Below are positions 19,246 to 54,951 of a DNA stretch of 64,000 nt, in pieces (position 1 is the first letter of the stretch; each line of letters starts with the position of its first letter). Both the position numbers and the translations under genes were made by a program. The notes under the pieces were generated by a model. The model ran no database searches. It worked only from the letters and a program-made list of their open reading frames with translations, and was not told the DNA's origin. This DNA is from a virus (taxonomy: Duplodnaviria > Heunggongvirae > Uroviricota > Caudoviricetes): the IMG/VR virus record IMGVR_UViG_3300028887_000066, positions 243,550 through 307,549 of that record; one strand, 5' to 3'.

Positions 19246-19258
19246 TGGATATAAAAAA

Positions 19259-23248: not shown

Positions 23249-24359
23249 TAATCGGTATTTCGTATGTAGAAATGTTATCCTCTACAATATAATTCTCATT
23301 GATGCTTGTTACAACATGCGGGTTAGCAAGATAACTGTCAATAGGACGCTTGATTTTTTTATAGTAAAGGAAATTCTCAGGATGCATAACATCCATATAT
23401 GTGCGGTATACCATAATACCAATATCTTCTGCCGTGCGAGTCTCCTTATATTTTTCTTGCCTATCAAAACCGTAGTCATCAATATTGAATTTCTTTTCCA
23501 ATTTGAGTGCGAGTTCAACCCGTTGTTCTGGCGTATCAATCGGAACACCATTTTCCACTTCACATTTAACGGCCTTTGCTATATCCTCATAATAGACATT
23601 ATGACTATAGTCACGCACCCAAGAATCAAAATATTCAATATATTGTTCCTTACCGTCGAAATTAACCTTACACCATTTATGTGCCTTTGAGTCAAAACAG
23701 TTAGCCAGATCTTCCCAACAAAAATATGATTCGAAATCACTTGCATAATAATAACTGTTTTTGTGTGATTCCTCGCTGCTCCATTCACTTATGAATTTAA
23801 TTTCGCCATTTTCAAGAACAGGCTCTATATTTGTAAAACCACGAAGAGTCTTTATGTTAGTAACATTCCTGTCTTTCAAAAAACGCATCAGTAAATCAAT
23901 GGGGTCGAACAAATCCTGTAGATGCAAATCACAATGGAAATTCATATGCCCCCAATTTAAACGGTCAAATATTTCCCGCCTAATATCTTTGGCGATAAAA
24001 TCTTTTCTGTTCTGACTTAATCGGTTATAACCGTGTGTTGCGATTTCGCCTGAATGCATTGCAGCATATGTATGACGGCCAAGCCCATAATGGAATGACA
24101 ACCATATAAGATCATCTACCTTAGATGTCGGCAATACTTTTAATGGGGCAGACTTCTTACGACGTTTCTTCAAAAACTCCCTGAACTCAGCGACTAATTG
24201 ATGATATTCCTCAGAGTCAAAATCTACATTGAAATATTCGTCTTCTCGTTCATTTTTCAACCCTATTGCATATCGATACGACATCCATACTAAATCTTCC
24301 GCATACATGTCGTCAAAATCATTCTTTTTCTTCTTAGTCATTATTTTCTGTTTTTTCAA
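23238..24359 (-). CDS. hypothetical protein (373 aa)
   Basis: Long ORF. Confidence 0.6.
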   Translation of the reverse strand: MKKQKIMTKKKKNDFDDMYAEDLVWMSYRYAIGLKNEREDEYFNVDFDSEEYHQLVAEFREFLKKRRKKSAPLKVLPTSKVDDLIWLSFHYGLGRHTYAAMHSGEIATHGYNRLSQNRKDFIAKDIRREIFDRLNWGHMNFHCDLHLQDLFDPIDLLMRFLKDRNVTNIKTLRGFTNIEPVLENGEIKFISEWSSEESHKNSYYYASDFESYFCWEDLANCFDSKAHKWCKVNFDGKEQYIEYFDSWVRDYSHNVYYEDIAKAVKCEVENGVPIDTPEQRVELALKLEKKFNIDDYGFDRQEKYKETRTAEDIGIMVYRTYMDVMHPENFLYYKKIKRPIDSYLANPHVVTSINENYIVEDNISTYEIPINEG

Positions 24360-24822
24360 CGATGACCAATGCGTGTCTTATAATCTCCCCGTTCATCTTA
24401 TAACCCACTTTATATATGTTAGAAATGCAATTATCGGAAACATCGCCACTGTTTGAGGTGGATACGGCATTATGTATGTCAGGATTGAATTCATCGCCGA
24501 TAGAGCCATATGCTTCGACTCCACATTCTTTCAGTACATTAAATAATTTACTGTAAATCAACTTTATACCTTCACCGTCTGACCCCATTTTATGTGCCAT
24601 TTCACAATCATCGATGACAGTAATTAAAGATAAGATTATTTCTTTTCCTGCCGTATTCCGTATGGTTTCAATTTCCTTCGCCTTTCTCTTCTTGTAGTTA
24701 TCAAATTCGGCTAAAAGCCTAACATACATATCTTGGTAGTCAGGCTGCTTAACCTCTTCATCATTAACTATAACAGGCTGCTCATTTTCAACAGGCATGT
24801 TATTCAACATTGTCTTTAGCAT
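24334..24822 (-). CDS. grpE: GrpE nucleotide-exchange factor
   Basis: LLAEFDNYKKRKAKE .. DEFNPDIHNAV .. GYKMNGEIIRHALVIV align with GrpE's AEFENYRKR and FDP..HEAV..GY..R..RPA.V motifs. Confidence 0.8.
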   Translation of the reverse strand: MLKTMLNNMPVENEQPVIVNDEEVKQPDYQDMYVRLLAEFDNYKKRKAKEIETIRNTAGKEIILSLITVIDDCEMAHKMGSDGEGIKLIYSKLFNVLKECGVEAYGSIGDEFNPDIHNAVSTSNSGDVSDNCISNIYKVGYKMNGEIIRHALVIVEKTENND

Positions 24823-25132
24823 CGGTCTTATTTTCTTTCTCCTCTTCGTAATCGTAAACTTTCTTTAAAAAGTTGGCGACTTCTTGCATTTTCGTATAAT
24901 CACTTGGTTTTAATATTACCTCGCCAAAATCACCATATTTCGACCTATAGCCAAATATATACTTGATACCAAGCCATAGTCTCTTGAAAAATGGCAATGT
25001 ATTCAAATGAAACGATGCATATACACAAGGATAACTATCGTTTTCGTAGTCAGTCCAATAATTCATTAATATCTGATCAGCTACGTCTCCACAAGAGCAT
25101 AAAAACAAAATATTTCTTTCGTCGTCTCTCAT
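24800..25132 (-). CDS. hypothetical protein (110 aa)
   Basis: ORF. Confidence 0.5.
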   Translation of the reverse strand: MRDDERNILFLCSCGDVADQILMNYWTDYENDSYPCVYASFHLNTLPFFKRLWLGIKYIFGYRSKYGDFGEVILKPSDYTKMQEVANFLKKVYDYEEEKENKTDAKDNVE

Positions 25133-25138
25133 ATTTTT

Positions 25139-25444
25139 TTAATTTGGAATGCCAATTGTTACATAAAATACATCATCAACTACATCATTGTCTATTTTTA
25201 CGACAAATGCGTTAGGAAAACGAAGCTCAATTTGGAACATCATTTTGGCTAATGCCTCAAAATAATTACTCCAAATACCACGCCCGTTCAAACCTCCTGC
25301 AATGACAAAGCTGTCATAGCCATTATCCGTGGTCGTAAAACTATCCTCAAGTACAGTTAGTGTACCTCCATCGTGACACACCTTTGTGCAATCAATCTTA
25401 GAGATAGCTTTTTGAATAATCTCAATAATCTTGTTACCTTCCAT
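25139..25444 (-). CDS. hypothetical protein (101 aa)
   Basis: ORF. Confidence 0.5.
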   Translation of the reverse strand: MEGNKIIEIIQKAISKIDCTKVCHDGGTLTVLEDSFTTTDNGYDSFVIAGGLNGRGIWSNYFEALAKMMFQIELRFPNAFVVKIDNDVVDDVFYVTIGIPN

Positions 25445-25449
25445 ATTTC

Positions 25450-25776
25450 TTATTTAGTTTTTAATCCTAACTGATAATTTAATATTTTTTTAATATCATT
25501 TACATCTTCAATATATCCTTCAAACATTGATTCCCATTCGTAGACAGACATAAAAAACATTTCCACCTTAATTTGCATCCCATATTTGTCTGGTATAAAC
25601 ACCCATAAACGATATTTTGCCGTCCACCAACTACTGCCAATAGGCTTTTCCATATCTTGAAAATCTTTTGTTTCCCAAATGCCAATATTTACCCCATGTC
25701 CAGTATAAGTGAAAATACCAAAATTATCATCAAGTATTTTTATAATTGTATTTCTTATTTCATCGTATTTTCCCAT
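25450..25776 (-). CDS. hypothetical protein (108 aa)
   Basis: ORF. Confidence 0.5.
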   Translation of the reverse strand: MGKYDEIRNTIIKILDDNFGIFTYTGHGVNIGIWETKDFQDMEKPIGSSWWTAKYRLWVFIPDKYGMQIKVEMFFMSVYEWESMFEGYIEDVNDIKKILNYQLGLKTK

Positions 25777-26143
25777 AATTATCTATTTTATAAGCTGTAG
25801 GATCCCAATAGTCAATATCAGGCATTTGTGGTCTGTATTTTTCTTTGAATTTCTCGAATTCTTCGATAAAGACCTGTTCACTTATTTCATATCTTCTGAA
25901 AAACGAATCATATTGTATTGTTTGGTAAAGTATGAAAAAAGTGCCTCCCGATACTTTATAGTCATAGAATCTTGCATATTTCTTATGTCCTAAACCGTTA
26001 GTGTTGGCCTTAATATAGAACTTCTTATTACAAAAATCCTGAAACTCTAACACCTTCTTATTCATCTTGTTTTTTTGATATGAAATACAACTCACAACTA
26101 TGACAACAACACATAAGATTCCTAAAATTAAAGCCAAACACAT
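25760..26143 (-). CDS. hypothetical protein with N-terminal TM helix (127 aa)
   Basis: ORF. Confidence 0.5.
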   Translation of the reverse strand: MCLALILGILCVVVIVVSCISYQKNKMNKKVLEFQDFCNKKFYIKANTNGLGHKKYARFYDYKVSGGTFFILYQTIQYDSFFRRYEISEQVFIEEFEKFKEKYRPQMPDIDYWDPTAYKIDNYGKIR

Positions 26144-26172
26144 AACGTTACCTCCTTTTCTTCTATAGTGAA

Positions 26173-26514
26173 CTATTCACGCTGATTATAATTCTTTTCT
26201 ACGTATTCCCACAATTTTTCATCTGTTGAAAGGTCTATGGGTGTACCGTCCTTTTCCCAAGCAAAATATTCCTTTTCTTCATTTCCGCTTTTCTTGCTCT
26301 TCTCCAACAGACGAGGAGCATCATACAACGCCCACGAAATCCAATCCCATCCATCTTCTCCGTAGGCTTCTGTAAATGCCAATGCCTGCAACGCCCAATA
26401 TGACTTGCACAATTCAGTGTCAATAATGTCAATTCCGAGCTTTCTCAATGTTTCAATATCATTATCCGTTTTGCGGATAGTATCAAGCACCTCTTTGAAT
26501 TTCTCTAATTTCAT
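26173..26514 (-). CDS. hypothetical protein (113 aa)
   Basis: ORF. Confidence 0.5.
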   Translation of the reverse strand: MKLEKFKEVLDTIRKTDNDIETLRKLGIDIIDTELCKSYWALQALAFTEAYGEDGWDWISWALYDAPRLLEKSKKSGNEEKEYFAWEKDGTPIDLSTDEKLWEYVEKNYNQRE

Positions 26515-27026
26515 GCCTTAATATATTTAGTATCTACAAACTTAGTGAGCCAAACTCCATTGTTACTCAAATAAAACTTGTTTCCGTCGTTATGCATCGT
26601 TTTTGCGTCAATTACCAATACAATTGGCTTACCGTGCCTCTTTCCTACATTAATGGCAGTATCCGCATCAGCGGACAAATGTACATGCAGCCTTGTTCCG
26701 CTGTTTATTCCGCTTTTCATAATGGAATCCAAAAAACGTGTAGCCGTACCGTGATATAATGTATCAGGAGGTGTCATTTCCTTCAATTCCACATTAACTT
26801 CCACACTATGCCCTTGTCTTGCACGGATATATTTTCTGTCTTCAGAATACTCAAATCGTTTTTTGTTGTTAGTTTCAACGATTTCATCAAGTATTTCAGG
26901 TGTATAGCCGTGATTTCTTAACAAATCATCAACCTCACGCCAACCATGCTCGTCAAATTTATACTCTTTATCGTGTCTGAGAAGAAAAGCTAATTCCTTA
27001 CCTTTTTCAATTACTATATTTTTCAT
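26511..27026 (-). CDS. kptA: RNA 2'-phosphotransferase (Tpt1/KptA family)
   Basis: LRHDKEYKFDEHGW..KKRFEYS..IRARQGHSVEV..LYHGTATRFLDSI..RLHVHLSADADTAINVGKRHGKPIVLVIDA..GVWLT match Tpt1 conserved blocks. Confidence 0.85.
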   Translation of the reverse strand: MKNIVIEKGKELAFLLRHDKEYKFDEHGWREVDDLLRNHGYTPEILDEIVETNNKKRFEYSEDRKYIRARQGHSVEVNVELKEMTPPDTLYHGTATRFLDSIMKSGINSGTRLHVHLSADADTAINVGKRHGKPIVLVIDAKTMHNDGNKFYLSNNGVWLTKFVDTKYIKA

Positions 27027-27750
27027 TTTTGCCCAAATTTTTTACGGCATTTTCGCCATTTAACACAAATTCATATTCCGTTTTTTTAATTTCCGAAAAC
27101 CCCATACTTTTAGCCTTGGAAAGAAAATCATCTTTATCTTTCTCATTGATGTGGATTGTCGTACCTGTAACTTCAGAAAATATTTGGCCTACTTCCTCTG
27201 CATCACAGACTATTTTGACATTTCTATTTTTATCCATAGACGAGAATAACGATACAAACATTGCATTTTCATAACGTCCATTTTCATCTTTTGTGATATT
27301 TGTAGTCAATATTTTCTTCTCAATATCAGACAACTCACCAAAACCCAAATATGTATGGTACTCATTCACCTTTTCAAAAGTATCGGCATTGTATATGAAA
27401 TTCCTACATATCTTCTGACCGCTATTCAGGAAATTGATCAATATTTCTGTTCCATTCTTTGTCGCTTCGTCTTTATTCCTTGCCCAAAGTACGACATTAG
27501 CCTCAAATGGTGAATTCACTATTAGTGTGGGGTATGGGTAGTCATAGGAACCCATCAGTCTTGTCTCCTGTTCAATCTTATCAAAAATGACAACAAACAA
27601 AAACTCATCATTCACCTTGTCTTTAACCTCATATTCTTGTATATAGCCAACGCCAACACGTTTCACCATTTCTTCGGCTAACTCCATTGTGCTGAATGCT
27701 TCATTCACATCATAGTGAAATCCCTCATATCTTACAGTATAAACTTTCAT
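27007..27750 (-). CDS. hypothetical protein (start at MKVYTV)
   Basis: ORF. Confidence 0.55.
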   Translation of the reverse strand: MKVYTVRYEGFHYDVNEAFSTMELAEEMVKRVGVGYIQEYEVKDKVNDEFLFVVIFDKIEQETRLMGSYDYPYPTLIVNSPFEANVVLWARNKDEATKNGTEILINFLNSGQKICRNFIYNADTFEKVNEYHTYLGFGELSDIEKKILTTNITKDENGRYENAMFVSLFSSMDKNRNVKIVCDAEEVGQIFSEVTGTTIHINEKDKDDFLSKAKSMGFSEIKKTEYEFVLNGENAVKNLGKNEKYSN

Positions 27751-27771
27751 AAGACAAATATACAAAACTTT

Positions 27772-28452
27772 TTATTCGGAATAGCAATATACCAATGTCA
27801 AATGATTCATGTGAACCACTTTCTTAGCTTTTTCAATATCTAAGCCCATCTCATCTATCTTTTTATCATACTCCCATCTGTTAAATGGTTTCGTAATTAG
27901 ATGAATTCCTGTTCTTGTTTTAAAATGTGTAAGTACATTTTCATTATACGATGGTGAACATTGGCAAATAACAGACTTGTATCTTTCAATCTTATCCATA
28001 TCGATGATTTCTCCGTCTTTTACACAATCATCAATGTCGATTACCCATTTTTTATCATCCCTCTCAAGATATTTTCCAGAACAACTGTTGAATATCTTCC
28101 ACGGACGACGAAAATCTGAGCATCCTACACGCCTTATGAGTTCCTGCGCCGTATTTATCATTACTTGCTTACCGTCTTTTATATTAACAGAGCCATATGC
28201 CCTCATTCTCATTACGTCACATAACAGAATAATCTCAGGCATAGCCTTACGCAATTCCTCAATACTTTGAATGTAGTAGTTTTTAAAATGAACGTTAACG
28301 GCTGAAAGATTCGGGTTATCCTTTCCTCTTCTCATTACCTCTATCACATAGTATTTCGGGGTAAAATTCCTGTTATAATTTATTGTTTCTGGAATTCCAT
28401 TATCTCTTAAAAAATCCTCGTATGCCTTAAAATTATCAACTTTCATAAACAA
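27772..28452 (-). CDS. hypothetical protein (226 aa)
   Basis: ORF. Confidence 0.55.
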   Translation of the reverse strand: MFMKVDNFKAYEDFLRDNGIPETINYNRNFTPKYYVIEVMRRGKDNPNLSAVNVHFKNYYIQSIEELRKAMPEIILLCDVMRMRAYGSVNIKDGKQVMINTAQELIRRVGCSDFRRPWKIFNSCSGKYLERDDKKWVIDIDDCVKDGEIIDMDKIERYKSVICQCSPSYNENVLTHFKTRTGIHLITKPFNRWEYDKKIDEMGLDIEKAKKVVHMNHLTLVYCYSE

Positions 28453-28502
28453 ATTTTATTTTATGCAAAGATACAGAAAAAAATTGGACTGACAAAATAT
28501 TA

Positions 28503-30635
28503 TCAATCCAATTTCTCCAAAACAGTTCCTATAACAGTCCTAACCCCTAAGTCAAATTTTACAGTATATGACTTATTTTTTTCATTATAATGTATTATTT
28601 CACCAGTTCCAAAAAACTTATGCTTTACCATATCACCAACAGACAATTCATCATTCGCCTCAGAAAAACTGATTTTCCCAAACCTGTTTTTACCAAATTT
28701 ATCCTTTGGTTGGTTTAATTTTGTGATTAATTCATCATCTATCTCTTCAAGAAAACGCGACGGCTCTTTGTCTCTTTTAGTTATGAAATTAAATCCTCCC
28801 GACTCACTTAAATACAGTTTATCCATTGCGCGAGTTACAGCTACATAGAATATACGTCGTTCCTCTTCCAAGCCATCTGCCTGCATTTCTCTCATGGCTC
28901 TCGAATTTGGGAAAATACCTTCATTAAGCCCACAGACGAATACCACAGGAAATTCAAGCCCCTTACTTTGATGAATTGTCATCAGTTTTATTGCATCCGT
29001 ATCTGAGGTTTTGTCCATGTTAGTAAACAATGACATATCCTGCAAATACCTGTCAAGCCCTAAATCTTCCTCATGTTCATTTGATTTCTCATAATCTTTT
29101 ACCGATGAAATCAATTCGCCTATATTCTCAATACGTTCTTCATCTGAATCATTGGAATACAGTTTCTTCAAACCACTTTTATCCAGGACTTCAGAAAGTA
29201 TATCAGAAATATGCTTTTTGTCTTTATACGCTCTACCCCATTCAATAAGTTCAACGAATTTGACAATCTGCTCCTTGTTAAACTCCTTGTCTTTAATATG
29301 TTTCTTCAAAGATTCATACATTGTTGTTTTTTCTTTTTGGGAAAGTATTTTTAGTTTTTCCAACGAAACTTTGCCAAACTTCCTTGACGGTACATTAATA
29401 ATACGGCTAAACGCTATATCATCACCATTTGCGATAACACGCAAATATGACATCACATCCTTAATTTCCTTTCTATCATAAAACCTTACTCCACCCCATA
29501 TAATATATGGTATATTGGATTTTAACAGTTCCTGTTCTATTGGCCTTGACAAATATGATGCCCTGTACAACACCGCAAAATCAGTATTTTTCCTTTTATC
29601 TGATTTTTTTAACTTGTTTATTTCTTTCAGAATCCATGATGCCTCGTCCTGATCAGTATAGGCATGATAGTAAACAGGTAGTTCACCATCCTTTCTTTCC
29701 GTAACCAAATTTTTCTTTAATTGCCTCTCATTATTTTTGATTACACAATTCGCAACATCAAGAATCGGTTTTGTTGAGCGATAATTCTGATTTAATACAA
29801 CGTCTTTTTTACTTTTGAAATCTACGAACATCTGAGGCTTACTACCCCTGAACCCATATATGCTCTGACAATCGTCACCGACACAGAATATATTTCCACT
29901 TGCTTTTCCTAACAAATTTATAAGTTTCCAATCGACGGCATTGCAATCCTGCGTCTCATCTACCATTATGTATTGGAAAAACGACCATCTGTCATATGCA
30001 TCTTTATATTTCTGCAAAACATAGAGTCCGAAAAATATTAGATCATCAAAATCAAGATAATATGACTTACGTTGCTCTATAATATATTTTATAACAGGGT
30101 CGTTACTGTTCATTGTGTCCTTATCCATTACAATGTCGCCTATATAAGATGATTTTGACTTATATTCAGCCACTTTTTCCAATAACTGATATTCTGTCAT
30201 GTCGTCTTTGTCAATATGCAACTCATCCATCACCTTTTTAGCCATATCCTTTGAATCTATCTCATCTAGGATAATGAAATTTTTAGGATACCCTAAATGA
30301 TATATTTCGTTTCTTAGAATTTTGACACAGAGGCTATGAATGGTACATATAAAATCCGTGGCAACATCAGAATCAATGAGTTTTGAAACTCTATTCTTCA
30401 TTTCTTGTGCGGCTTTATTCGTAAAAGTTATGCACAATACATTAGCGGGTGATACCCCAAGGTTCTGTATTATATGGGCATATCTTGAAACAAGGGTCTT
30501 GGTTTTCCCTGCTCCAGCCCCTGCAATTGCCCGAACCTTACCTTCTGTGGCGTTTACGGCCTCTTTTTGCCTGTTATTGAGACCATTAAAAATGCCATCT
30601 GATTTGTTATTGCTATTCCGTTTCATTTTTCCCAA
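28503..30635 (-). CDS. UvrD/PcrA/Rep-family superfamily 1 DNA helicase
   Basis: LNNRQKEAV..AGAGAGKTKTLVSRYAHII (Walker A), later Q/III/IV/V/VI helicase motifs, 710 aa. Confidence 0.9.
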   Translation of the reverse strand: MGKMKRNSNNKSDGIFNGLNNRQKEAVNATEGKVRAIAGAGAGKTKTLVSRYAHIIQNLGVSPANVLCITFTNKAAQEMKNRVSKLIDSDVATDFICTIHSLCVKILRNEIYHLGYPKNFIILDEIDSKDMAKKVMDELHIDKDDMTEYQLLEKVAEYKSKSSYIGDIVMDKDTMNSNDPVIKYIIEQRKSYYLDFDDLIFFGLYVLQKYKDAYDRWSFFQYIMVDETQDCNAVDWKLINLLGKASGNIFCVGDDCQSIYGFRGSKPQMFVDFKSKKDVVLNQNYRSTKPILDVANCVIKNNERQLKKNLVTERKDGELPVYYHAYTDQDEASWILKEINKLKKSDKRKNTDFAVLYRASYLSRPIEQELLKSNIPYIIWGGVRFYDRKEIKDVMSYLRVIANGDDIAFSRIINVPSRKFGKVSLEKLKILSQKEKTTMYESLKKHIKDKEFNKEQIVKFVELIEWGRAYKDKKHISDILSEVLDKSGLKKLYSNDSDEERIENIGELISSVKDYEKSNEHEEDLGLDRYLQDMSLFTNMDKTSDTDAIKLMTIHQSKGLEFPVVFVCGLNEGIFPNSRAMREMQADGLEEERRIFYVAVTRAMDKLYLSESGGFNFITKRDKEPSRFLEEIDDELITKLNQPKDKFGKNRFGKISFSEANDELSVGDMVKHKFFGTGEIIHYNEKNKSYTVKFDLGVRTVIGTVLEKLD

Positions 30636-31479
30636 GTAACTTATCCTCTATTATCTTATATTCATTCGTCAGATGTTTGATCAATCTTGGCTTTCCTAAA
30701 TTATCATAGTATTCCTTAACCATCTCACAACCAATAAAATTCCTATTCGTTTTGATACAGGCTACGCCAGTAGTAAAGCCGCCGCCAAACGGGTCAAAAA
30801 CCAAGTCGCCATCAACGCTCCAACTGAGTATATGGTCAATTGCCAATTGTAATGGAAATGCCGCATTATGTCTAAATTCTTTATCACCGTCCTTAGATAC
30901 GTTATTCTGCTTCCATATATTATTCCTTACGCTGAATTCAGGTACTGGATTAATGAACTTTTTCTTTGAATTAACCAAATCACCTTTTTGATTCCTTTGG
31001 CTCTGCTGTCCAAAATTAGTATGCCCAAACCATTTATTAGGTTTATCTTTAATTAATGTGTAATCAGTCCTTGGTTTACCCTTACAAAAGACAAACATAT
31101 ATTCAAATATTTGGCTGTATCGTCGGCTATTCGGTTTTACGGGAAATGAACTTGTATCTTTTTCCCATATCATTGTGTCTAAAATCTTAAAGCCTATCTC
31201 TTTGAAATATAACGCCTGTTTAAATGATGTTCCTGTTTCAGAGCCGTCTATAACCGCATCATTGCATATCCAAACAATACAGCATCCATCATTCATTACC
31301 TTATACAAATGATCAGCAACATCTTTGAAAATTTCAAAATTCCATTCATCACCAACACCTTGATATGATCTTAAATTGTCATATGGAGGGGATGTTACGA
31401 CTAAATCTGCCTTGATGCCTCTTTCTATCATTTCATCCATTACATCAATGCAGTTCCTGTTAAAAATATTAATAACCAC
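30613..31479 (-). CDS. DNA methyltransferase (N6-adenine/N4-cytosine, beta class), orphan
   Basis: VVTSPPYDNLRSYQ (S/DPPY motif); no adjacent restriction endonuclease recognised. Confidence 0.85.
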   Translation of the reverse strand: MVINIFNRNCIDVMDEMIERGIKADLVVTSPPYDNLRSYQGVGDEWNFEIFKDVADHLYKVMNDGCCIVWICNDAVIDGSETGTSFKQALYFKEIGFKILDTMIWEKDTSSFPVKPNSRRYSQIFEYMFVFCKGKPRTDYTLIKDKPNKWFGHTNFGQQSQRNQKGDLVNSKKKFINPVPEFSVRNNIWKQNNVSKDGDKEFRHNAAFPLQLAIDHILSWSVDGDLVFDPFGGGFTTGVACIKTNRNFIGCEMVKEYYDNLGKPRLIKHLTNEYKIIEDKLLGKNETE

Positions 31480-31579
31480 TAACCATATAGTTTTTGCTTC
31501 AAAATTATTTTACCTTACAAATATACAAAAAAGGTCAGGAAAGAAAAATCCCGACCTTAATTAGAAATATCTATTCAAA

Positions 31580-32404: not shown

Positions 32405-32419
32405 TTCTTTATTTTTTTT

Positions 32420-33756: not shown

Positions 33757-33784
33757 TTCAAATTTTATTTAATAGTTCCAAATC

Positions 33785-34219: not shown

Positions 34220-34227
34220 TTTTTCAA

Positions 34228-35039: not shown

Positions 35040-35066
35040 CGGTACTTAAAAATTTAAAAACGTTAT

Positions 35067-35891: not shown

Positions 35892-35899
35892 ATTTCCAT

Positions 35900-36895: not shown

Positions 36896-37013
36896 TAAAG
36901 CTAAAATTATTCATTACAAATATACAAAAAAATGTGGTGATCGTTTAAGATAACCACATTTAATTTTCCATATTATACCCGTTCTGATATAATTTAATAT
37001 TTTTTGCAACAGT

Positions 37014-38676: not shown

Positions 38677-38681
38677 AATCG

Positions 38682-39479: not shown

Positions 39480-39873
39480 TTATCTGAATATTTGCTCCGC
39501 AACGAGGACATGACACGGAACTTGCAAGACTATCGTCTTCATCATTGTCAACATCCCCTATTACCTCTGAACGCATAAAATCCGCACCCCATATGATATG
39601 ACTATTACATTGCGGGCATAAGCCATGATAACCATGTTCAGTTTTCCCTAATTCGTCATCTATGGACTCATTGTAAAATGCATAATTTTCTTTCTCTTCA
39701 TCATCACAAAGAGTAACTATTTCAATTGTCCCACAATTAGGACATCTGAATACTATGCAGTCATCATCTTCAAACGAATTATCCCTTTCTAAAATTGAAT
39801 CGCACCTCATACAACGAGGGCTATTAAATGACTTGTTTTTTACCATTACCAAAAAATAACCTATAAAATACAA
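39412..39873 (-). CDS. multi zinc-ribbon protein
   Basis: Four CxxC pairs (CMRC, CPNC, CPQC, CPRC). Confidence 0.5.
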   Translation of the reverse strand: MYFIGYFLVMVKNKSFNSPRCMRCDSILERDNSFEDDDCIVFRCPNCGTIEIVTLCDDEEKENYAFYNESIDDELGKTEHGYHGLCPQCNSHIIWGADFMRSEVIGDVDNDEDDSLASSVSCPRCGANIQIIDAKPSEYRNYPAYGYESGGTY

Positions 39874-40063
39874 AAAATAATATTGAAAAGACCATTATCA
39901 ATAATGCAGCGGCATAAGGTAATACCAATATACCAAATACCCACCACCAAGATAAGGCTATAAGCCCGCTTGTTTTCAATAACACCATAAAAACAAATAT
40001 AATGCAAGATAAAACCAATGATACTACTGCTATATTTGTTATTTTCTCATTAGCTCCGATCAT
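39824..40063 (-). CDS. small membrane protein (79 aa)
   Basis: Two hydrophobic helices. Confidence 0.4.
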   Translation of the reverse strand: MIGANEKITNIAVVSLVLSCIIFVFMVLLKTSGLIALSWWWVFGILVLPYAAALLIMVFSILFFVFYRLFFGNGKKQVI

Positions 40064-40344
40064 TTCCTAAACAATTCAATTATGAAACCACATAACGACT
40101 TACTATGGTTAATATTTTTAACAAACATTCCATCAATAACTTCTGAACCTATTGATAAACACGGGCCACCTGGCGGATCAACCGCAACTATCTCGTCTTT
40201 ATTTGTCGGGGAATACGTTAATCCCATTGTAGGTAAATCCGTGATTAGCAAATACTTATTGTCTACTATATACTTTAATTTTGCATTGATACCATCCCTG
40301 TTGTACAGTATAATATCATTACCATCCAAATATCCCAATACCAT
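40060..40344 (-). CDS. hypothetical protein (94 aa)
   Basis: ORF. Confidence 0.45.
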   Translation of the reverse strand: MVLGYLDGNDIILYNRDGINAKLKYIVDNKYLLITDLPTMGLTYSPTNKDEIVAVDPPGGPCLSIGSEVIDGMFVKNINHSKSLCGFIIELFRK

Positions 40345-40347
40345 AAA

Positions 40348-41100
40348 CTATTCCATTCTTATACACTCATATATCGAAATTCTCTCGTTTTCCTTCAATG
40401 GTAAAATAAACCTGTCGTAAAATTCCATTACCCATTCAAATTGGTTTATTGTATCTTCAAGTTCTACCCATCCAGTTTTTTCGCTAAGAAATGCATATCC
40501 CCAAAACGAAGTATTACTAAGAACATAATTCTCTCTACTACCATACGTCGAAAAATATGCCTTTCTATTTTTCATATTTTCATATATGATTTTTTCCTCC
40601 TCCGTATTTGCCTTCTTACCTTCCATTACAGAATCCCAAGCAAACTCATACGTTTCCTTATTAGCTAAATGTATCTTATCCCACGCAATTTCATTTTTTG
40701 TACAGGAAAATACCTCTTCTCCGTTTTTATTGATCAATGGAACGGCAAAATTTTTTCCTAAACGACACGAATCATATTTTCCATTAGGATTCTTATCTGA
40801 TACGGCATCACCTGTTTCCTCGTCAATGTCATACCCTTCCGTTATATCAACAAAAAAATCGACATCACTCTGTTCCTTATATATTTTCAATTGCTCTTCA
40901 GCTAATGGGTAATTAGGATCCGTAGGCTCAAGTTTCAAAAGCATCTCTTCATAGAATTTAATATATTTCTGCCTAAGTTTACCTGCATTCTTGAATTGCA
41001 ATACGGTATATTGTTCTACTTTTTTATTGGAATCATATTCCTTTATCAGTTCATCAGGATTCTCACCGACTACCACTAATGTAAAATGTCTGTTATTCAC
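40348..41100 (-). CDS. hypothetical protein (250 aa)
   Basis: ORF. Confidence 0.55.
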   Translation of the reverse strand: MNNRHFTLVVVGENPDELIKEYDSNKKVEQYTVLQFKNAGKLRQKYIKFYEEMLLKLEPTDPNYPLAEEQLKIYKEQSDVDFFVDITEGYDIDEETGDAVSDKNPNGKYDSCRLGKNFAVPLINKNGEEVFSCTKNEIAWDKIHLANKETYEFAWDSVMEGKKANTEEEKIIYENMKNRKAYFSTYGSRENYVLSNTSFWGYAFLSEKTGWVELEDTINQFEWVMEFYDRFILPLKENERISIYECIRME

Positions 41101-41130
41101 TTATTCATATTCTTTTTCAATCTATTATTT

Positions 41131-41325
41131 TTAACCCCATTGGAACACGGCCGCCCAAAACAATGCCATAATTATAACAAGGATATTCTTGATTCTTGCC
41201 TTATCCTTATCCACAGTATCCAAGCCATTTCCGTATGGGTTAATTTTTGAACTTATATATTCGGCAAACATAATATTCACCCAAAAAAATGTTGCGGCTA
41301 ATGCCACTACTAAACAAAAATACAT
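41131..41325 (-). CDS. small membrane protein (64 aa)
   Basis: Hydrophobic ORF just downstream of a promoter-like caaatata box at 41346. Confidence 0.4.
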   Translation of the reverse strand: MYFCLVVALAATFFWVNIMFAEYISSKINPYGNGLDTVDKDKARIKNILVIIMALFWAAVFQWG

Positions 41326-41396
41326 ACTTTATTTTCTTTTACTACAAATATACATTTTTTCAACCAAAAAACTATATTTCTTAAAAGAAACAGACA

Positions 41397-42227
41397 TTGA
41401 CAATGGCTAACAGCAAACATATAAAATATAAGGCAGACGGTACGCCATATTACAGCTACTATAAAAAAAAATTAGGCAGACCGAAAAAACGTGGGCCGAA
41501 ATCGAAAAAGTATATACCAGTAAAGAAGAGGAACTATCAAAAATGGGACTTCAAGATATTAAGATTCGATTTCAAGAAACAAGTGGAATATATCGGGCAG
41601 TATCATGATTATGGGGAGGTGACAGAAAAAATGAATTCCCTGCTTGAAGAAAATAAAAAAATAGAAATCCCTGTAAAATTCATAAACAATAAAAGAAAAA
41701 ATCCATCACATTATGAATATGAAGGGGAATATGTTGTCTTAAAAAGAATAAGGGATAAAAACACGCAGACAAACGAATCAATGCTCAGAGACGAATACGG
41801 GAGATTTGTAAAGCATATCACAACATCTGAAAATTGGTTTATATATGAGAAATTCCCGTATTACAAGGAAGAAACGTTTTGGGTATACGGTTATAACCCG
41901 AAAACCGACAGAAAAACAATAAAATGGATATACTCCAATTTTATTTCAAACTTCATTGAAAACACATATGATATTGTTCAAGTATATCTTTACAATAATA
42001 AAGTAATATTCAGATACCCTGAGAACAAATTAAATTTTATTATCACAAAAAATATATCGGATGGGATACGTGTCTATAACTTTTTGCAGGATAAATACAA
42101 AAAAAATAAACAAGTTATATTCACAGGTTTTATCACGAAACATTCTGACAGGACGATGGAAACAATATCCCTGCTTAAAGAAAAAACAGGATGGGACATT
42201 ACGAAAATATACAGAAGGCATACATGA
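41397..42227 (+). CDS. AT-hook (GRPKKRGPK) DNA-binding protein on the opposite strand
   Basis: Lys/Tyr-rich, with the AT-hook GRPKKRGPKSKK near the N-terminus. Confidence 0.55.
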   Translation: MTMANSKHIKYKADGTPYYSYYKKKLGRPKKRGPKSKKYIPVKKRNYQKWDFKILRFDFKKQVEYIGQYHDYGEVTEKMNSLLEENKKIEIPVKFINNKRKNPSHYEYEGEYVVLKRIRDKNTQTNESMLRDEYGRFVKHITTSENWFIYEKFPYYKEETFWVYGYNPKTDRKTIKWIYSNFISNFIENTYDIVQVYLYNNKVIFRYPENKLNFIITKNISDGIRVYNFLQDKYKKNKQVIFTGFITKHSDRTMETISLLKEKTGWDITKIYRRHT

Positions 42228-42266
42228 AATAGGCAACCGTTTTAAATACGACTGCCTATTTTCTTA
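42227..42266. terminator. bidirectional hairpin between convergent genes
   Basis: aaataggca .. tgcctattt 9-bp stem followed by a T-rich run. Confidence 0.55.
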
Positions 42267-42532
42267 TAGTTTTCCTTGTTAGAGGTTTTTATCCCGCGTA
42301 ACATCCAATCAGTAGAATAATCAAGCCTATTAGAAATCAATAGTATTATTTCACAACTTGGTAATGGAAAGCCGCCAGTTCTCTTGTCCTTATTGAAAAG
42401 CCTGTTTATTTTTGAACTGTCAGGCAAACCAAGAGATAATGAGAAACGTCGAACATTCCCCCCAAAATTTTCATCTATTATAGTCTTAATACGCCTGTTA
42501 ATATCAGGCAATTCATTCAATGCATATTTCAT
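42242..42532 (-). CDS. XRE-family helix-turn-helix transcriptional regulator
   Basis: IKTIIDENFGGNVRRFSLSLGLPDSSKINRLFN .. DWMLRG is the typical Bacteroidales HTH_XRE layout. Confidence 0.6.
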   Translation of the reverse strand: MKYALNELPDINRRIKTIIDENFGGNVRRFSLSLGLPDSSKINRLFNKDKRTGGFPLPSCEIILLISNRLDYSTDWMLRGIKTSNKENYKKIGSRI

Positions 42533-42603
42533 ATATCTTAAAAAACCTTTCCTGTTTTCTTATAATAAATAAAACATTTTTCAAAATTTTCAAGATTTGT
42601 TAA

Positions 42604-42650
42604 TAAAAAAATTGAGGCTATCAGGAAAATTCCCAATAGCCTCAAAAAAA
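42604..42650. terminator. bidirectional rho-independent terminator downstream of 42651-44006
   Basis: 10-bp stem ttgaggctat/atagcctcaa flanked by A/T runs. Confidence 0.7.
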
Positions 42651-44006
42651 TCACTCAATGGTTATACCTATCTTTTTCACGTACTCAGCAACAAGCTTTT
42701 TCATGAACTGTTCACCATTGAATCCCGCTTCAAGGAACTTGAGCAAGTATGGGCTGTATCCTGACATAAAGACGTTACCATCCTTATCCACCTCAGGACA
42801 GGTCTTATTCCTTGAATTCAGATTCCACCAAACAATTTTCGTCTTAAAGCCGTTTTGTTGGAAGATGCGCATTGTCTCGTCCTTTGACTGTTTTGAACCA
42901 CAGTCAAATTCCATGTCACTGAGGACGACCAACCACTCAGGGGCGTTTTTAGCATCAAGACCCTTCAACAGACGCATTACAGCCGCAAAATCTGTATTAC
43001 TGCAATCACCCGTGTACATCGAGGCAATTTCGCGCTCATATTGGTTCTTGCAATGGCTAAGATTCTGACGATGCGTCCTTACACCCCATCCATAAGAAGT
43101 AACCTCATTTTCGACACCAAGCTCAAGCAATTGAGGATTGGACGAGAAAGAGACCACCTTGTTAGGTGCATATGTAGAACACTTTGAAAGGTAATGCCCG
43201 ATAGCAATAGCCTTTCCATAGGAATCATTACCATCCTGCATAGAGCCTGACGAGTCGATAACAGGAATCCAACTTCCACTGATTTTCTCTATCTTGTCGA
43301 AGAAAAGATCTGGATCAATCTTAGTACGATTCTTATAGATGTCATACACGGTCGTAGTGGAAATCTTCATTTCCTTCTTGCCATCCTTGACATCGGCAAG
43401 GTACTTCTCAAAACGGGCCTTTGTATCCTCCTTTTTGAGGAAACGCTGATAATATTTGATCAACGCAAGCGAAGGAACATGCTCGAACTCAATTTCCTCT
43501 GTGTTCTTACGGGATAATTTGTTTTCCACGGTATCACACTTGATGAACTTGCCATACTGCTGCTTATTCATACCCCAATACTTTGCAATCTCACGGGCGA
43601 CCATCAGATTCTTTGAGGAATAACGTGGCATCCACTTCTTAGCAAGCTCATTACCCTTCTTGATTTCATCCTTCAAGTAATCAAGTGCCTCATTAAAAGC
43701 TGCCGTACCATGAAACATAGTCCAAACATCATCAAAACGTCCTGCCAACACCATATCAGTAATGGAGACATGCGCCTGCTTCATCAATTCACGTCCAAGG
43801 TCACGCTTTCCAAGACCGTATCGTGGGTCACGGACAAACATTGCGAATGCCTTTTCAAAAGCTGACGTACCTATACGTACCTCATCAACATGCTTCTGAA
43901 AATACTCTGTCATAAACAGCAAGTCCAACAGTGGATTCAATGTAGACTTGTAGGAAACATCACCGTTTTCTGTCAACTTCTGGTTGAAAATTTCTTCTAA
44001 ATTCAT
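42651..44006 (-). CDS. von Willebrand factor A (MIDAS) domain protein, DUF2828-like
   Basis: MIDAS motif VIDSSGSM (DxSxS) around residue 250. Confidence 0.65.
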   Translation of the reverse strand: MNLEEIFNQKLTENGDVSYKSTLNPLLDLLFMTEYFQKHVDEVRIGTSAFEKAFAMFVRDPRYGLGKRDLGRELMKQAHVSITDMVLAGRFDDVWTMFHGTAAFNEALDYLKDEIKKGNELAKKWMPRYSSKNLMVAREIAKYWGMNKQQYGKFIKCDTVENKLSRKNTEEIEFEHVPSLALIKYYQRFLKKEDTKARFEKYLADVKDGKKEMKISTTTVYDIYKNRTKIDPDLFFDKIEKISGSWIPVIDSSGSMQDGNDSYGKAIAIGHYLSKCSTYAPNKVVSFSSNPQLLELGVENEVTSYGWGVRTHRQNLSHCKNQYEREIASMYTGDCSNTDFAAVMRLLKGLDAKNAPEWLVVLSDMEFDCGSKQSKDETMRIFQQNGFKTKIVWWNLNSRNKTCPEVDKDGNVFMSGYSPYLLKFLEAGFNGEQFMKKLVAEYVKKIGITIE

Positions 44007-44047
44007 ATTCTCTGACTTTTTAGCAAGGTTATTATTTCAAATTAACA

Positions 44048-44085
44048 CTGCAAAGATACGACTATTTTTTGAATTGGCCAAATAA
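44048..44085 (-). promoter_or_regulatory. Bacteroidetes-type promoter (TTTGGCCAA..20 nt..TATCTTTG) for 42651-44006
   Basis: caaagata 44051-44058 and ttggccaaa 44075-44082. Confidence 0.65.
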
Positions 44086-44101
44086 AACGATAAAAATATT
44101 A

Positions 44102-44725
44102 TCAATCCCACCAATAATCAGTATATCGCTCCCTCACTTTGTAATATATATGTCGTGCTTTTGCCATATAATATTCATGATCATAGTTTCCGCTTTTGAA
44201 AATATTAGACTCTAACAGGGCTTTATTTAAGAAACGCTTTGCATTCCTCTTATTCACATATGGGCCGTCATAGCGATAAATTAATTTATCTGTCTTTATT
44301 TCAGAAAGACCCATATTTGAATCACCTACCTGTTTCACAGGCCCATACTCAACGTTCCCGTCATAATGGAAATAATCTGTTTCATTATTGAGTACATGAA
44401 TGCAATGTTTCGCCCATTTCAAGGAACGCATAATTTCATTATATTGCTCATCAACCATTAGCTGATGATGCTTAAACCAATGCAATTGTTTATCTATTTG
44501 CCTCTCTTCAAGCTCAAGAATGAAACCCCCATCCCAAGGATATGTCACAAACGCTTGTTTGATCAATCTCCAATGATACTTATTGAAATTACAATAGAAC
44601 CAATGATACATTGTTCTGTATGCCGACTTTGGTTTATCCCAAATGTACCATAGTATATTGTCGTCTATCCAATCACATACCTTGTTGGACTTACATTTTT
44701 TGTACCACCAATCGCTTATTTTCAT
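44102..44725 (-). CDS. Trp-rich hypothetical protein (207 aa)
   Basis: ORF. Confidence 0.55.
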   Translation of the reverse strand: MKISDWWYKKCKSNKVCDWIDDNILWYIWDKPKSAYRTMYHWFYCNFNKYHWRLIKQAFVTYPWDGGFILELEERQIDKQLHWFKHHQLMVDEQYNEIMRSLKWAKHCIHVLNNETDYFHYDGNVEYGPVKQVGDSNMGLSEIKTDKLIYRYDGPYVNKRNAKRFLNKALLESNIFKSGNYDHEYYMAKARHIYYKVRERYTDYWWD

Positions 44726-44844
44726 AAAATTTAATCTTTTTTAGTGTATGTAACGACTTTACGGCTTAATGCCACACAAACAATCACCAATCCGAGCCAA
44801 TGCCAAAAATCAGTGAAGAAAAATTCGCATAAATATTTTGCTAT
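44710..44844 (-). CDS. small hydrophobic ORF (about 44 aa) missed by the 60-aa track
   Basis: MEIAKYLCEFFFTDFWHWLGLVIVCVALSRKV..; its stop overlaps the downstream start. Confidence 0.3.
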
Positions 44845-44853
44845 TTCCATAAT

Positions 44854-45651
44854 TTATCTTTTTGGTATAATGTTCAATTGATCAAAATATTCGTTAGTAA
44901 ACAATTCAGCATAATGGGCTTTCCATATGCTCCTTTCATATGAAACAGGTTCACCTTTTATTGTCGTGTTAAATGTTTCTGTTTCCTTGTATACGATACG
45001 CCCGTACTTCTTTCCATTATCCAACGCATTCCAATCGACATCCTTCTCATTGTTCAACAATTCAATTTGTTCATCGGCTTTCAAACCCACAAGTCTTTTA
45101 TGCGGAAGATATGTCTGTGCAGTCTGTTGTTTTGAATTACGCAGACAATCGTTCTGTCGATAAAGCAACCACGCAAATACGTCATTATATGTCGGTACTG
45201 TCCATACTTTGCAATCAAATTGTACAATAGGTTCAGATGCTATGATTTGTTTCAAATCATTATTTGAACATGGGACATTACATACTCTAAGTATGTTTAA
45301 TTGATTAAACTTAGCCGTTGCCAATGACGCTATTATCGACTGCATCTTACATAGTCTGAAACCGAAAAATGAATCACTTTCAGGTGTGTCAAAATCGGTA
45401 ATTACAAGACTAATCTCATCAGACTGTACATACGCTGTCTTACAGCCCTGTATTTCCTTACAAAGATATTCAGCCGTCTCATTCATCATACGGATAAATT
45501 CATCGTCAAACGGACGTTCAAAACGCTTTTTGACAAGTTTTGAAAATGAGCGTCCATCAATATGTGCCAGTACATACGAATTTGGCGTAAGTCTATAATC
45601 ATAGATGGATTTATAATACTCCATCCTTTCCTTTAGATTATTAAATTGCAT
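44854..45651 (-). CDS. Thg1-like protein (tRNA-His guanylyltransferase family, 3'-5' nucleotide addition)
   Basis: YVLAHIDGRSFSKLVKKRFERPFDDEFIRMM .. AYVQSDEISLV .. LATAKFN match Thg1 catalytic blocks (RIDGRxF, SDE); start refined to Met at 45651. Confidence 0.8.
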   Translation of the reverse strand: MQFNNLKERMEYYKSIYDYRLTPNSYVLAHIDGRSFSKLVKKRFERPFDDEFIRMMNETAEYLCKEIQGCKTAYVQSDEISLVITDFDTPESDSFFGFRLCKMQSIIASLATAKFNQLNILRVCNVPCSNNDLKQIIASEPIVQFDCKVWTVPTYNDVFAWLLYRQNDCLRNSKQQTAQTYLPHKRLVGLKADEQIELLNNEKDVDWNALDNGKKYGRIVYKETETFNTTIKGEPVSYERSIWKAHYAELFTNEYFDQLNIIPKR

Positions 45652-45753
45652 ATGTTTTTTAATTAATACATTGCAAATATACGGCAAAAAAATAGAACCA
45701 CCAAAATATTTCATTGATGGTTCTATCCATGATTATGAAAAAAGTAAAAAACA

Positions 45754-47628
45754 TTAAACCTCTTCTGCTTTCTGAGTACCCCCTGTAAATCCTGAGAAAA
45801 TATCATTCAGGGGATTTCCATCACCTTGTGGATTACTTCCTTGATACATCTTCTGGGTAATCGGATACCAAGTTTGCTCAAGCTCTTTCTGACAAGTTTC
45901 TACAAGACTGACATCTTTTGCCTCAATCGCCTTCTTTAAAGCCTCAATCTTTGGTGTAAGAGTGTTCTTATCATCATCGGTAAGTTTATCACCCATTTCC
46001 TCCATAGATTTTTCAATAGCAAAAATCAAACCGTCAGCATTGTTTAGTTTATCGGCGTTTTCCTTCTTTTTTCTGTCAGCCTCCGCATTTGCCTCTGCTT
46101 CAGCTTTCATACGCTCGATTTCTTCATCGGTAATACTGCTTTTTGATTCAATAGTGATATGCTGTTCCTTATTAGTCGCTTTATCAACAGCAGTTACACT
46201 CAAAACCCCATTAACATCCATATCAAAAGTGACTTCAATCTGAGGCACACCTTTTCTTGCGGGAGCAATCCCATCAAGATTAAAAATACCTATTGTTTTG
46301 TTGTCTACGGCCATTGGACGATTGCCTTGTAGTACCTTTATTTGTACACCTGGCTGATTATCCTGTGCTGTACTGAAAGTTTGTGATTTTTTGGTAGGTA
46401 TCGTTGTATTAGCCTCAATGATGTTCGTCATAACACCCCCTATTGTCTCGATGCCTAAATTCAATGGTGTCACATCAAGTAACAAAACATCCTTATTATC
46501 ACCAGCGATAATTGAACCTTGAACCGCAGCACCAAGAGCTACAATCTCATCAGGATTGACATTTTTAATAAGCTGAACCCCAAATTCCTTCGTGAGCATT
46601 TCCTGAACATAAGGAATTCGTGTAGAACCACCTACGAGAATAATACCAGTAAGTTCATTCGCCATAATGCCTGAATTTGATAAAGCTGTTTTACCACAAC
46701 CTATAACCTTTTTGATTTCATTTGAAATGAGTTTTTCAAATTTGGCACGTGTAACACTGATATTCAAATGCTGTGGAACCCCGTCTTTAGCGGTAATGTA
46801 TGGAATATTAATATCTGTTGTGGTACTATTTGAAAGCTCCATTTTAGCTTTTTCAGCGGCCTCCACGACACGTGTCATTGCCATAGGATCAACAGAAAGG
46901 TCGATACCTGTATCACTTTTAAATGAATTAACAATGTCGTCACACAAAAGCTTAGTAAGGTCTGAACCTCCACAATACACATCACCATACGAACTCAATA
47001 TCTCAACAACACCATCAGAAATGTCGGCAATGGAGAAATCCAATGTTGAGCCACCGTAATCGGCAACCATATATTTACCACCTTTAGCCATATCAATGCC
47101 AGAAGCAAGAATTGCCGCTGTAGGTTCTGCGACGATACGACGTACATTTAGTCCAGCAATTTGACCAGCTTTAATGGTGGCTTCACGTGCTTCATTATCG
47201 AACATAGCAGGTACGGTAATAACAGCCTCTGTAACCTCCTCCCCAAGATAATCTTCTGCTGTCTTCTTTAATTTTTGAAGTATCATTGCGGAAATTTCTT
47301 CAGGGGAATACTCCCTATCACCAATTGCAATTCTTGGGTAGCCATTAACGTTTTTCACATCATACTCAATATGAGCGAAATTGTCTTTTACATTCTCATA
47401 AGTACCACCCATGAAACGTTTAATAAGAACTACTGTATTCTTGGGGTTGGTGATTGCTTGACGTTGTGCCGAAGCCCCGACCTTGCGTGTTCCGTCTTTA
47501 TCAAAAAATACTACAGACGGAGTTGTCCTATTTCCTTCATCATTGACAATAATCACTGGGCTATTACCCTCCATTACAGAGACTTCGCTAAGGGTACTAC
47601 CCAAATCAATTCCAATAATCTTTCCCAT
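45754..47628 (-). CDS. dnaK: Hsp70 chaperone DnaK
   Basis: [18 protein letters not shown] .. [11 protein letters not shown] .. full-length 624 aa with a C-terminal EEV-like tail. Confidence 0.95.
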
Positions 47629-50384: not shown

Positions 50385-50475
50385 TTCTGTATAAATTTCA
50401 ATCAAAATAAATATACAAAAAATTAGGGATACACAATACTGCATACCCCTTTAATGACTTTCTCTGATCAATGAT

Positions 50476-54945: not shown

Positions 54946-54951
54946 AAATTA

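Follow-up and report, generated by a model that had tools for sequence, protein, structure and literature searches.

Can a very large phage run an Hsp70 chaperone cycle with its own DnaK and GrpE, but without a DnaJ? The question is raised by a 64,000-nucleotide stretch of a Caudoviricetes genome (IMG/VR record IMGVR_UViG_3300028887_000066, positions 243,550 to 307,549; "the window" in the following), for which an initial annotation, made from the sequence alone, had reported DnaK and GrpE but no J-domain protein. According to our analysis, the window is very probably part of an approximately 356-kb huge phage which is related to the Lak megaphages and owns a DnaK and a GrpE from old phage lineages. 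The framing as "DnaK and GrpE without DnaJ", on the other hand, is mostly an effect of the window: relatives encode a DnaJ, those of its own subclade at some distance from dnaK, and most of the genome lies outside the sequence searched.

The window encodes a complete DnaK and a divergent GrpE

The gene dnaK (45754-47628, minus strand) encodes a full-length Hsp70 of 624 amino acids (aa) with nucleotide-binding domain, linker, substrate-binding domain and helical lid. Its product matches the Pfam model HSP70 (PF00012) over profile positions 1-599 of 599 with 674.5 bits (threshold 20.6) and passes the NCBIfam DnaK equivalog NF001413 (789.3 bits, cutoff 648), which bears out the full-length DnaK of the initial annotation. 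The score against TIGR02350 (772.2 bits) falls under the stricter cutoff of that model (822.55), as would be consistent with a divergent DnaK lineage. Escherichia coli DnaK is 51% identical and provides the closest solved structures (7krw and 5nro, E-value 1e-179). An identity as HscA or HscC was discarded, as HscA models reach at most 507 bits versus 789 for DnaK.

The residues D8, K70, R71, P143, R151, E171, D194, T199 and D201 are retained in the window DnaK and in 26 of 26 clade members; they include the Mg/ATP and catalytic set (D8, K70, E171, D194, T199, D201) and the allosteric switch (P143, R151). Equally intact in all of these proteins are the hydrophobic interdomain linker DVLLLD (L391, L392, D393) and the substrate pocket (F426, A429, Q433, V436). 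The J-domain-responsive residues R167, T173, E217, Q378 and D393 are likewise kept in the window and in 26 of 26 clade members and match the bacterial consensus; roles of R167, D393 and D481 in J-domain-triggered hydrolysis have been described (PMC7289447), and position 481 is N in the window, the same as in 80 of 80 sampled bacteria. Since the J-responsive R167/D393/linker switch is kept, the protein is expected to need a J-protein and, judged from its residues, should cycle as a canonical Hsp70.

Other positions set the clade apart. T11S, N13L, N170A, G198S, T225V and H226Y (E. coli numbering; residues 11, 13, 167, 194, 217 and 218 of the window protein) are fixed or nearly fixed clade-wide, being present in all or at least 23 of the 26 members, whereas the same positions are invariant in 79-80 of 80 sampled bacterial DnaKs. 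The substitutions suggest that the nucleotide pocket or the J-binding face has changed in this lineage of phage Hsp70. As A170 is also found in 12 of 40 phage DnaKs with an adjacent DnaJ, it is no marker of J-independence.

The gene grpE (24334-24822, minus strand) encodes a short, divergent nucleotide-exchange factor of 162 aa. The clear GrpE claimed earlier was confirmed by a Pfam GrpE match (PF01025) that spans the helix, four-helix-bundle and beta-domain regions (profile positions 22-165 of 165) with 111.2 bits (cutoff 25.8). Against each of the 26 NCBIfam GrpE models which it matches, the score stays below the cutoff (best 98.8 versus 194), and the protein is a genuine but divergent GrpE, an orthologue of no named bacterial lineage. 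Among solved GrpE chains it matches 4ani, 8gb3, 3a6m and 1dkg (E-values 1e-16 to 4e-12). Identity to E. coli GrpE is 29%, the N-terminus being about 35 residues shorter. G101 aligns with E. coli G122, the site of the grpE280 mutation, and is invariant in 14 of 14 aligned relatives.

The two genes lie 21 kb apart on the same strand, as stated before; since the minus strand holds about 88 of the 101 open reading frames (ORFs) of at least 60 aa, however, the shared strand is uninformative. Directly following grpE, a 373-aa ORF of unassigned function (23238-24359, minus strand) overlaps the grpE stop with its start by 26 nucleotides, which suggests a possible translational coupling of the two. This ORF has no Pfam or NCBIfam match and a faint match to a PHROG of unknown function.

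It may be asked whether DnaK and GrpE are decaying remnants without chaperone action. Changes at bacterially invariant DnaK positions and the failure of GrpE at every NCBIfam equivalog cutoff would fit such decay. Nevertheless, both ORFs are intact and of full length, the catalytic and allosteric residues of DnaK are all kept, and substitutions fixed throughout the clade, or nearly so, represent a conserved variant rather than drift, with A170 shared by phage DnaKs that have DnaJ next to them. We therefore regard decay as very improbable.

The chaperone genes very probably belong to a huge phage

The exact DnaK sequence was found on the JGI contig Ga0310696_10000012 (355,767 bp; metagenome 3300031993), on which the window covers approximately positions 48.3-112.3 kb in reverse orientation. 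Two contigs of 356,121 and 353,808 bp and many shorter ones carry near-identical DnaK variants, an ENA contig of 356,049 bp (ERZ27257203, k141_7658771) has the same flank genes, and one JGI and three Logan assemblies share a single gene order around dnaK. Since gene order agrees across assemblies and the composition of the window is uniform (GC content 0.32-0.39, GC skew negative throughout), a chimera is excluded. The element is an autonomous genome of more than 200 kb recovered repeatedly at the same size, as expected of a huge phage.

Relatives that share synteny and 64-69% DnaK identity are classed as viral in IMG/VR and reach 361 kb in genome size. Seven unannotated ORFs, queried jointly, have homologues in 16 phage-database records, 15 of which are Lak megaphages of Prevotella. 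The apparently clearest link to Lak is a 336-aa membrane/coiled-coil ORFan (57633-58643, minus strand) with 45-50% identity to proteins of all 15 Lak megaphage genomes. Assembly size, viral relatives and Lak homologies agree with the initial annotation that the element is a very large phage; its host is probably a Prevotella-like member of the Bacteroidota. A megablast search of 24 kb against the phage database gave no match, and ten unannotated ORFs matched only families of unknown function in PHROGs.

Searching one genome per species of 185,579 bacterial and archaeal species, the best bacterial DnaK was found in metagenome-assembled genomes (MAGs) of Bacteroidota and is 57% identical. More than 100 metagenomic proteins are 65-88% identical; 26 DnaKs from metagenomes and IMG/VR (64-88% identical) have the synteny IMPDH-like/DnaK/Thg1 in common, and inspected relatives with this neighbourhood lie on contigs of 230-261 kb. 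A neighbour-joining tree of 195 DnaKs places 103 sequences from phages and metagenomes, Lak-A1 among them, in one group without any bacterial member, and the window DnaK falls into a 27-member subclade nested among clades with a dnaK-dnaJ operon. This topology indicates that phage DnaKs may form a large radiation of their own. For GrpE, the top match among 1.84 billion cluster representatives is 52% identical and the remainder at most 48%, the one exception being a fragment of 66 aa (94%). All sequences in the ten nearest clusters are metagenomic, none of them assigned to an organism. Both chaperone genes very probably come from old phage lineages, and neither is a recent host capture.

One further GrpE-like protein of 201 aa (P0476, cluster of P0320; cluster representative 41% identical to the window GrpE) is encoded on a 353,911-bp contig. 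It may belong to another phage of similar size or be a second GrpE of the same phage.

The objection foreseen in the initial annotation, namely that the chaperone genes came recently from a host and that the stretch is bacterial or an assembly chimera, is scarcely credible on these data. It could invoke a contig labelled "MAG: Bacteroidales bacterium" by NCBI (P0032), whose DnaK is 71% identical, as well as the many metabolic and missing structural genes of the window. However, the P0032 contig is probably a mis-binned phage contig, and the gene order is the same in independent assemblies of approximately 356 kb. The best bacterial DnaK does not exceed 57% identity, and relatives of about 70% identity lie in syntenic contigs of 230-361 kb, several of them viral in IMG/VR. 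Further, grpE and dnaK do not form a host-type operon, the nearest GrpE relatives are metagenomic and distant, homologues of window ORFans in the phage database are almost all from Lak phages, and the window has an array of eight tRNA genes including a potential suppressor tRNA.

Some points weigh against the reading as a huge phage with chaperone genes from old phage lineages. The scan for bacterial DnaKs needed shared 8-mers, so its sampling is biased, and complete sampling could blur the phage-only clade; the tree, built from this sample without support values, has an indicative topology. No capsid, portal or terminase gene is present in the 82 kb read (the window and 10 kb on each side), and phage identity consequently rests on the IMG/VR viral relatives, the Lak homologies, the consistent genome size and the gene style. 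Scans of IMG/VR for GrpE, which relied on one exact motif, returned only relatives of at most 39% identity, none on contigs of the subclade.

No J-domain is found around dnaK and grpE

In the Pfam scan of all 101 window ORFs of at least 60 aa, no match to the J-domain (PF00226) was obtained at E ≤ 0.001. A local J-domain hidden Markov model (HMM), applied to all six-frame stop-to-stop segments of the window of at least 30 aa, gave a best E-value of 1.2, and a profile of 205 J-domain sequences, phage DnaJs included, one of 0.78. As a positive control, the same J-domain HMMs recover the DnaJ proteins of Lak-A1, Lak-B4, LR756502 and LR745206 at E-values of 1e-24 to 1e-29, so the negative is meaningful for the sequence searched. 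HPD tripeptides occur only twice in the window, neither in a J-like context. Thus, the earlier statement that the window ORFs include no J-domain (HPD) protein holds. The 10-kb flanks have no J-domain either, and the search in total covers positions 39,672-121,395 of the 355,767-bp contig, i.e., 82 of approximately 356 kb.

As degenerate J-domains, the ORF at 9153-9503 (which gave the E-value of 0.78) and a 111-aa ORF upstream of the IMPDH-like gene were considered and discarded, both having no HPD and an insignificant score.

Another conceivable solution is a non-canonical co-chaperone in place of DnaJ. A 108-aa ORF (62671-62997, minus strand) with the motifs CPECNGSG (CxxCxGxG) and CPVC shows a weak likeness to the DnaJ zinc-finger domain, without a J-domain; the 373-aa ORF at 23238-24359 is a candidate due to its tight coupling to grpE. 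The similarities of the former are insignificant, both to residues 119-175 of a relative's DnaJ (tblastn, E = 0.067) and to positions 148-180 of the complete DnaJ profile (E = 0.24), and neither ORF has an HPD motif or J-domain match. A J-independent activation of a canonical DnaK is not known, which also weighs against a replacement of this kind. We consider it improbable, and a link of the zinc-finger-like ORF to the chaperone pair is speculative.

Relatives keep dnaJ, but often away from dnaK

Using tblastn against 50,697 phage records, we found DnaK, full-length DnaJ and GrpE encoded in every Lak genome as well as in LR745206 and LR756501-LR756504. In Lak, dnaJ adjoins dnaK and grpE is 18-130 kb off; in LR756502, dnaJ adjoins grpE. 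IMG/VR contains viral stretches that encode DnaK (at least 101), GrpE (at least 55) or DnaJ (hundreds), and a DnaJ of approximately 360 aa is encoded within 10 kb of dnaK in 37 of 96 DnaK loci, mostly just downstream. Across the wider phage DnaK radiation, DnaK is usually accompanied by both a type I DnaJ and a GrpE, with dnaJ commonly after dnaK and grpE elsewhere. These counts leave the rarity of viral Hsp70 systems, asserted in the initial annotation, true in relative terms only. The pair without DnaJ could not be upheld as a distinctive trait, as Lak phages, LR phages and dozens of huge-phage contigs in IMG/VR have the full triad.

Within the subclade of the window DnaK, no DnaJ is encoded within 10 kb of dnaK at any of nine IMG/VR loci, nor on the contigs inspected from ENA (two) and from an NCBI MAG (one). 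In the sister sequence L120 and in the clades that branch next, dnaJ does lie near dnaK. Farther away, at 18-31 kb from dnaK, a type I DnaJ is found in at least nine members of the subclade. The earlier caveat that the J-protein may lie elsewhere is an apt one. In the subclade, dnaJ was relocated, not lost, and two arrangements occur. Arrangement A has the order 269aa(-)/68aa/255aa/SSB/DnaJ/ClpP and is carried by L231/L423 (same contig as the DnaK locus L115), L271 (the contig of DnaK P0023, which is 72% identical to that of the window), L424 and the related 360-kb contig L420, for which no DnaK was seen. In arrangement B, DnaJ is encoded directly upstream of the IMPDH-like gene, namely in L431 (same 361-kb contig as the DnaK locus L113) and L426. 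The subclade DnaJs are type I proteins of 339-353 aa with HPD, four CxxCxGxG motifs and clade signatures such as KWHPDRWVN.

Further DnaK/DnaJ pairs of the subclade were joined by the identical size in bp of the contigs carrying them (P0023/P0146, P0074/P0140, P0073/P0147, P0027/P0241, P0040/P0258, P0049/P0275). A regression over seven DnaK/DnaJ pairs gives a DnaJ identity of approximately 1.27 times the DnaK identity minus 0.50, predicting about 41% DnaJ identity at 71% DnaK identity. Taken by these data, dnaJ seems to be the mobile and fast-evolving member of the phage triad.

Both syntenic dnaJ sites of the window are without dnaJ

The neighbours of dnaJ in either arrangement have counterparts in the window. 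Anchor A (40348-42227) consists of a 276-aa ORF (41397-42227, plus strand), an approximately 64-aa ORF (41134-41328, minus strand) and a 250-aa ORF (40348-41100, minus strand), which are 41-51% identical to the 269aa(-)/68aa/255aa block of L271, L420, L231/L423 and L424 (blastp/tblastn). In the relatives this block is followed by SSB-DnaJ-ClpP, in the window by unrelated small ORFs, and the relatives' SSB, DnaJ and ClpP have no tblastn match in the window or its flanks even at E ≤ 10, save for the zinc-finger-like match at 62671-62997. Anchor B (49275-50444, minus strand) is the IMPDH/GMP-reductase-like gene (Pfam IMPDH, 124 bits), which is 34-38% identical to the ORF that comes immediately after DnaJ in L431 and L426. 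Upstream of it, the window has a 111-aa helical ORF where the relatives have dnaJ. Neither of the two syntenic sites at which relatives have dnaJ carries the gene in this phage.

A J-protein encoded elsewhere, in the remaining 274 kb of the genome, is the probable explanation of this absence. We favour it since all three genes of the SSB-DnaJ-ClpP module are lacking in the window and might have been relocated as a unit. A true loss of dnaJ, with host DnaJ-class proteins in its place, is less probable, though a serious option. In its explicit form, the lineage would have lost dnaJ, and phage DnaK and GrpE would run as a two-component system with host J-proteins of the DnaJ, CbpA or DjlA class. 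We entertain this form only tentatively, and with the same reserve the idea that the ancestral dnaJ was discarded and that the pair came to need host J-proteins, which would deliver clients and activate the ATPase. Clade-wide DnaK changes on the J-binding face (N170A) and in the nucleotide pocket (T11S, N13L, G198S, H226Y) could tune such a cross-kingdom partnership.

Loss would fit the missing dnaJ at both syntenic sites and across 82 kb around the chaperone genes, as well as the J-interface residues of DnaK, which match the bacterial consensus. Furthermore, among about 200 listed homologues of two relatives' DnaJ, none is on a contig of 353-356 kb. However, this last negative is weak, since the DnaJ identity predicted for the phage (34-41%) is at or below the lower end of the 120-match lists, and the approach recovered only about 6 of 27 relatives. 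Beyond that, 77% of the genome lies outside the searched sequence, relocation of the module fits equally well given that SSB and ClpP are missing too, and every relative with enough sequence has DnaJ. A J-protein gene elsewhere in the phage genome is, therefore, our preferred explanation.

Comparison with known systems

The Lak megaphages (MK250015-MK250029) and the LR phages of 460-735 kb (LR745206, LR756501-LR756504, LR756508), all with larger genomes than the 356-kb one studied here, likewise carry a full-length DnaK and a GrpE, 51-56% and 27-34% identical to those of the window, respectively. Lak and LR756504 also keep grpE far from dnaK (18 kb in Lak-B). Unlike the window, these phages have a type I DnaJ beside dnaK (Lak) or beside or near grpE (LR756502, LR745206). 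In Lak-B4 (MK250023.1, 401060-403485), Lak-B7 and Lak-B8, the DnaK match is in two pieces and takes up 2.4 kb for approximately 607 residues, which implies an insertion of presumably some 600 nucleotides (intein, intron or recoded stretch).

Closer relatives are found in the subclade (IMGVR_UViG_3300026549_001501; IMGVR_UViG_3300028833_000001, 361 kb; ENA WILK20-1 scaffold_33, 360 kb; Logan SRR32996463_610). They resemble the window in DnaK (66-72% identical where seen), the IMPDH-like/DnaK/Thg1 neighbourhood, the RNA-repair genes and the 269aa/68aa/255aa block, but have kept their DnaJ, either in the SSB-DnaJ-ClpP module or beside the IMPDH-like gene, whereas all three module genes are missing in the window.

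Moraphages, which are large aquatic phages of Bacteroidota, encode DnaK and DnaJ, for which roles in the takeover of host machinery and in counter-defence have been discussed (PMC12619734). They thus resemble the window phage as large Bacteroidota phages with proteins of the Hsp70 system. In contrast to the window DnaK with its phage-only radiation, moraphage DnaK is described as nested within Flavobacteriaceae, suggesting a recent transfer, and GrpE, present in the window phage, is unmentioned for moraphages (PMC12619734). Other phages provide a J-protein only. Rki of phage RB43 is described as a phage J-domain protein recruiting host DnaK (PMC3486835, cited in PMC12619734), and a survey of DnaJ domains in jumbo phages suggests that the J-domain proteins of cultured representatives recruit Hsp70 of the host (PMC7824862). 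In these phages, too, the chaperone cycle is split between phage and host, but the division of labour is reversed: they give the J-protein only, while the window phage gives Hsp70 and exchange factor.

With bacterial DnaK and GrpE (E. coli complex 1dkg, Geobacillus 4ani), the window proteins share the domain architecture, catalytic residues, linker, substrate pocket and the GrpE G122 position. Unlike in bacteria, neither a dnaK-dnaJ nor a grpE-dnaK-dnaJ operon is present, the N-terminus of GrpE is shorter, as described above, and DnaK is altered at bacterially invariant positions of the nucleotide pocket. The literature on phage Hsp70 systems is sparse. DnaK and DnaJ are noted for moraphages, and a survey lists DnaK chaperones among the abundant ATPases of huge phages (PMC8297831); a discussion of GrpE for phages was not found in this literature. 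Phage DnaK and DnaJ in moraphages and the full triad in public Lak and LR genomes are, consequently, already known, and only a lineage-specific absence of dnaJ, as yet unproven, is potentially new.

Other genes of the window

Among the neighbours of the chaperone genes, several are of RNA-repair type: a Thg1-like tRNA-His guanylyltransferase directly after dnaK (44854-45714), a Tpt1/KptA RNA 2'-phosphotransferase (26511-27026) and an RNA ligase (53322-54020), all on the minus strand. In the relatives of 230-261 kb with IMPDH-like/DnaK/Thg1, genes for a T4 Rnl1-type ligase and an HD/AAA_33 kinase-like protein are found as well. A 451-aa protein with DUF2828 and DUF7788 is encoded two genes after Thg1 (42651-44006, minus strand), at a position conserved in all assemblies.

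The tRNA array (9534-12054, minus strand) comprises eight genes, namely Cys, two Gln, two Arg, two Glu and one with the anticodon CTA (10035-10107, minus strand), labelled "Pyl" by ARAGORN. By analogy with the TAG-recoded Lak-type phages, the last could be a potential amber suppressor. Since TAG still terminates 15 of 83 window ORFs, any recoding would affect other, possibly late, genes.

Metabolic genes include a cluster for NAD+ salvage and synthesis (62072-63999, minus strand, and L111, 5868-10603) with isochorismatase-like, NAD synthase, NAPRTase, NUDIX and NMNAT-like cytidylyltransferase genes. An AMP-binding acyl/aryl-AMP ligase (13317-14936, minus strand) and a separate phosphopantetheine-binding carrier protein (18988-19299, minus strand) are also encoded. 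An ABC-transporter-like set (53986-57584, minus strand), consisting of an ATPase, a weakly matching BPD_transp_1 permease and a 509-aa fusion of an NMT1-type substrate-binding protein with an OmpA domain, is unusual phage cargo. The window also encodes a UvrD helicase, a DNA methylase, an amidase and YopX. On the JGI contig, about 5 kb beyond window position 1, lies a reverse transcriptase gene (RVT_1; L109, 15260-16348), which is possibly part of a diversity-generating retroelement.

Proposed role and meaning

From the conserved residues we infer that the DnaK-GrpE pair is active and cycles as in canonical Hsp70 systems. The phage would encode an Hsp70 machine in which an ATP-driven DnaK is reset by a short GrpE through exchange of ADP for ATP. 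A J-protein would deliver the client and trigger ATP hydrolysis by DnaK, after which GrpE would release the ADP. The J-partner would come from elsewhere in the phage genome or, after a loss of dnaJ, from the DnaJ-class proteins of the host. This machine may help to fold and assemble a very large phage proteome, make the phage independent of the heat-shock control of its host, or act in counter-defence.

As it stands, the phage is an ordinary member of a known but under-reported class. If it truly lacks a J-protein, it would offer a natural test of whether host J-proteins can drive a viral Hsp70, and a loss of dnaJ would reverse the strategy of phages that encode a J-protein alone and use it to hijack host DnaK. 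Phage-borne Hsp70 systems as such show the extent to which huge phages are independent of host proteostasis.

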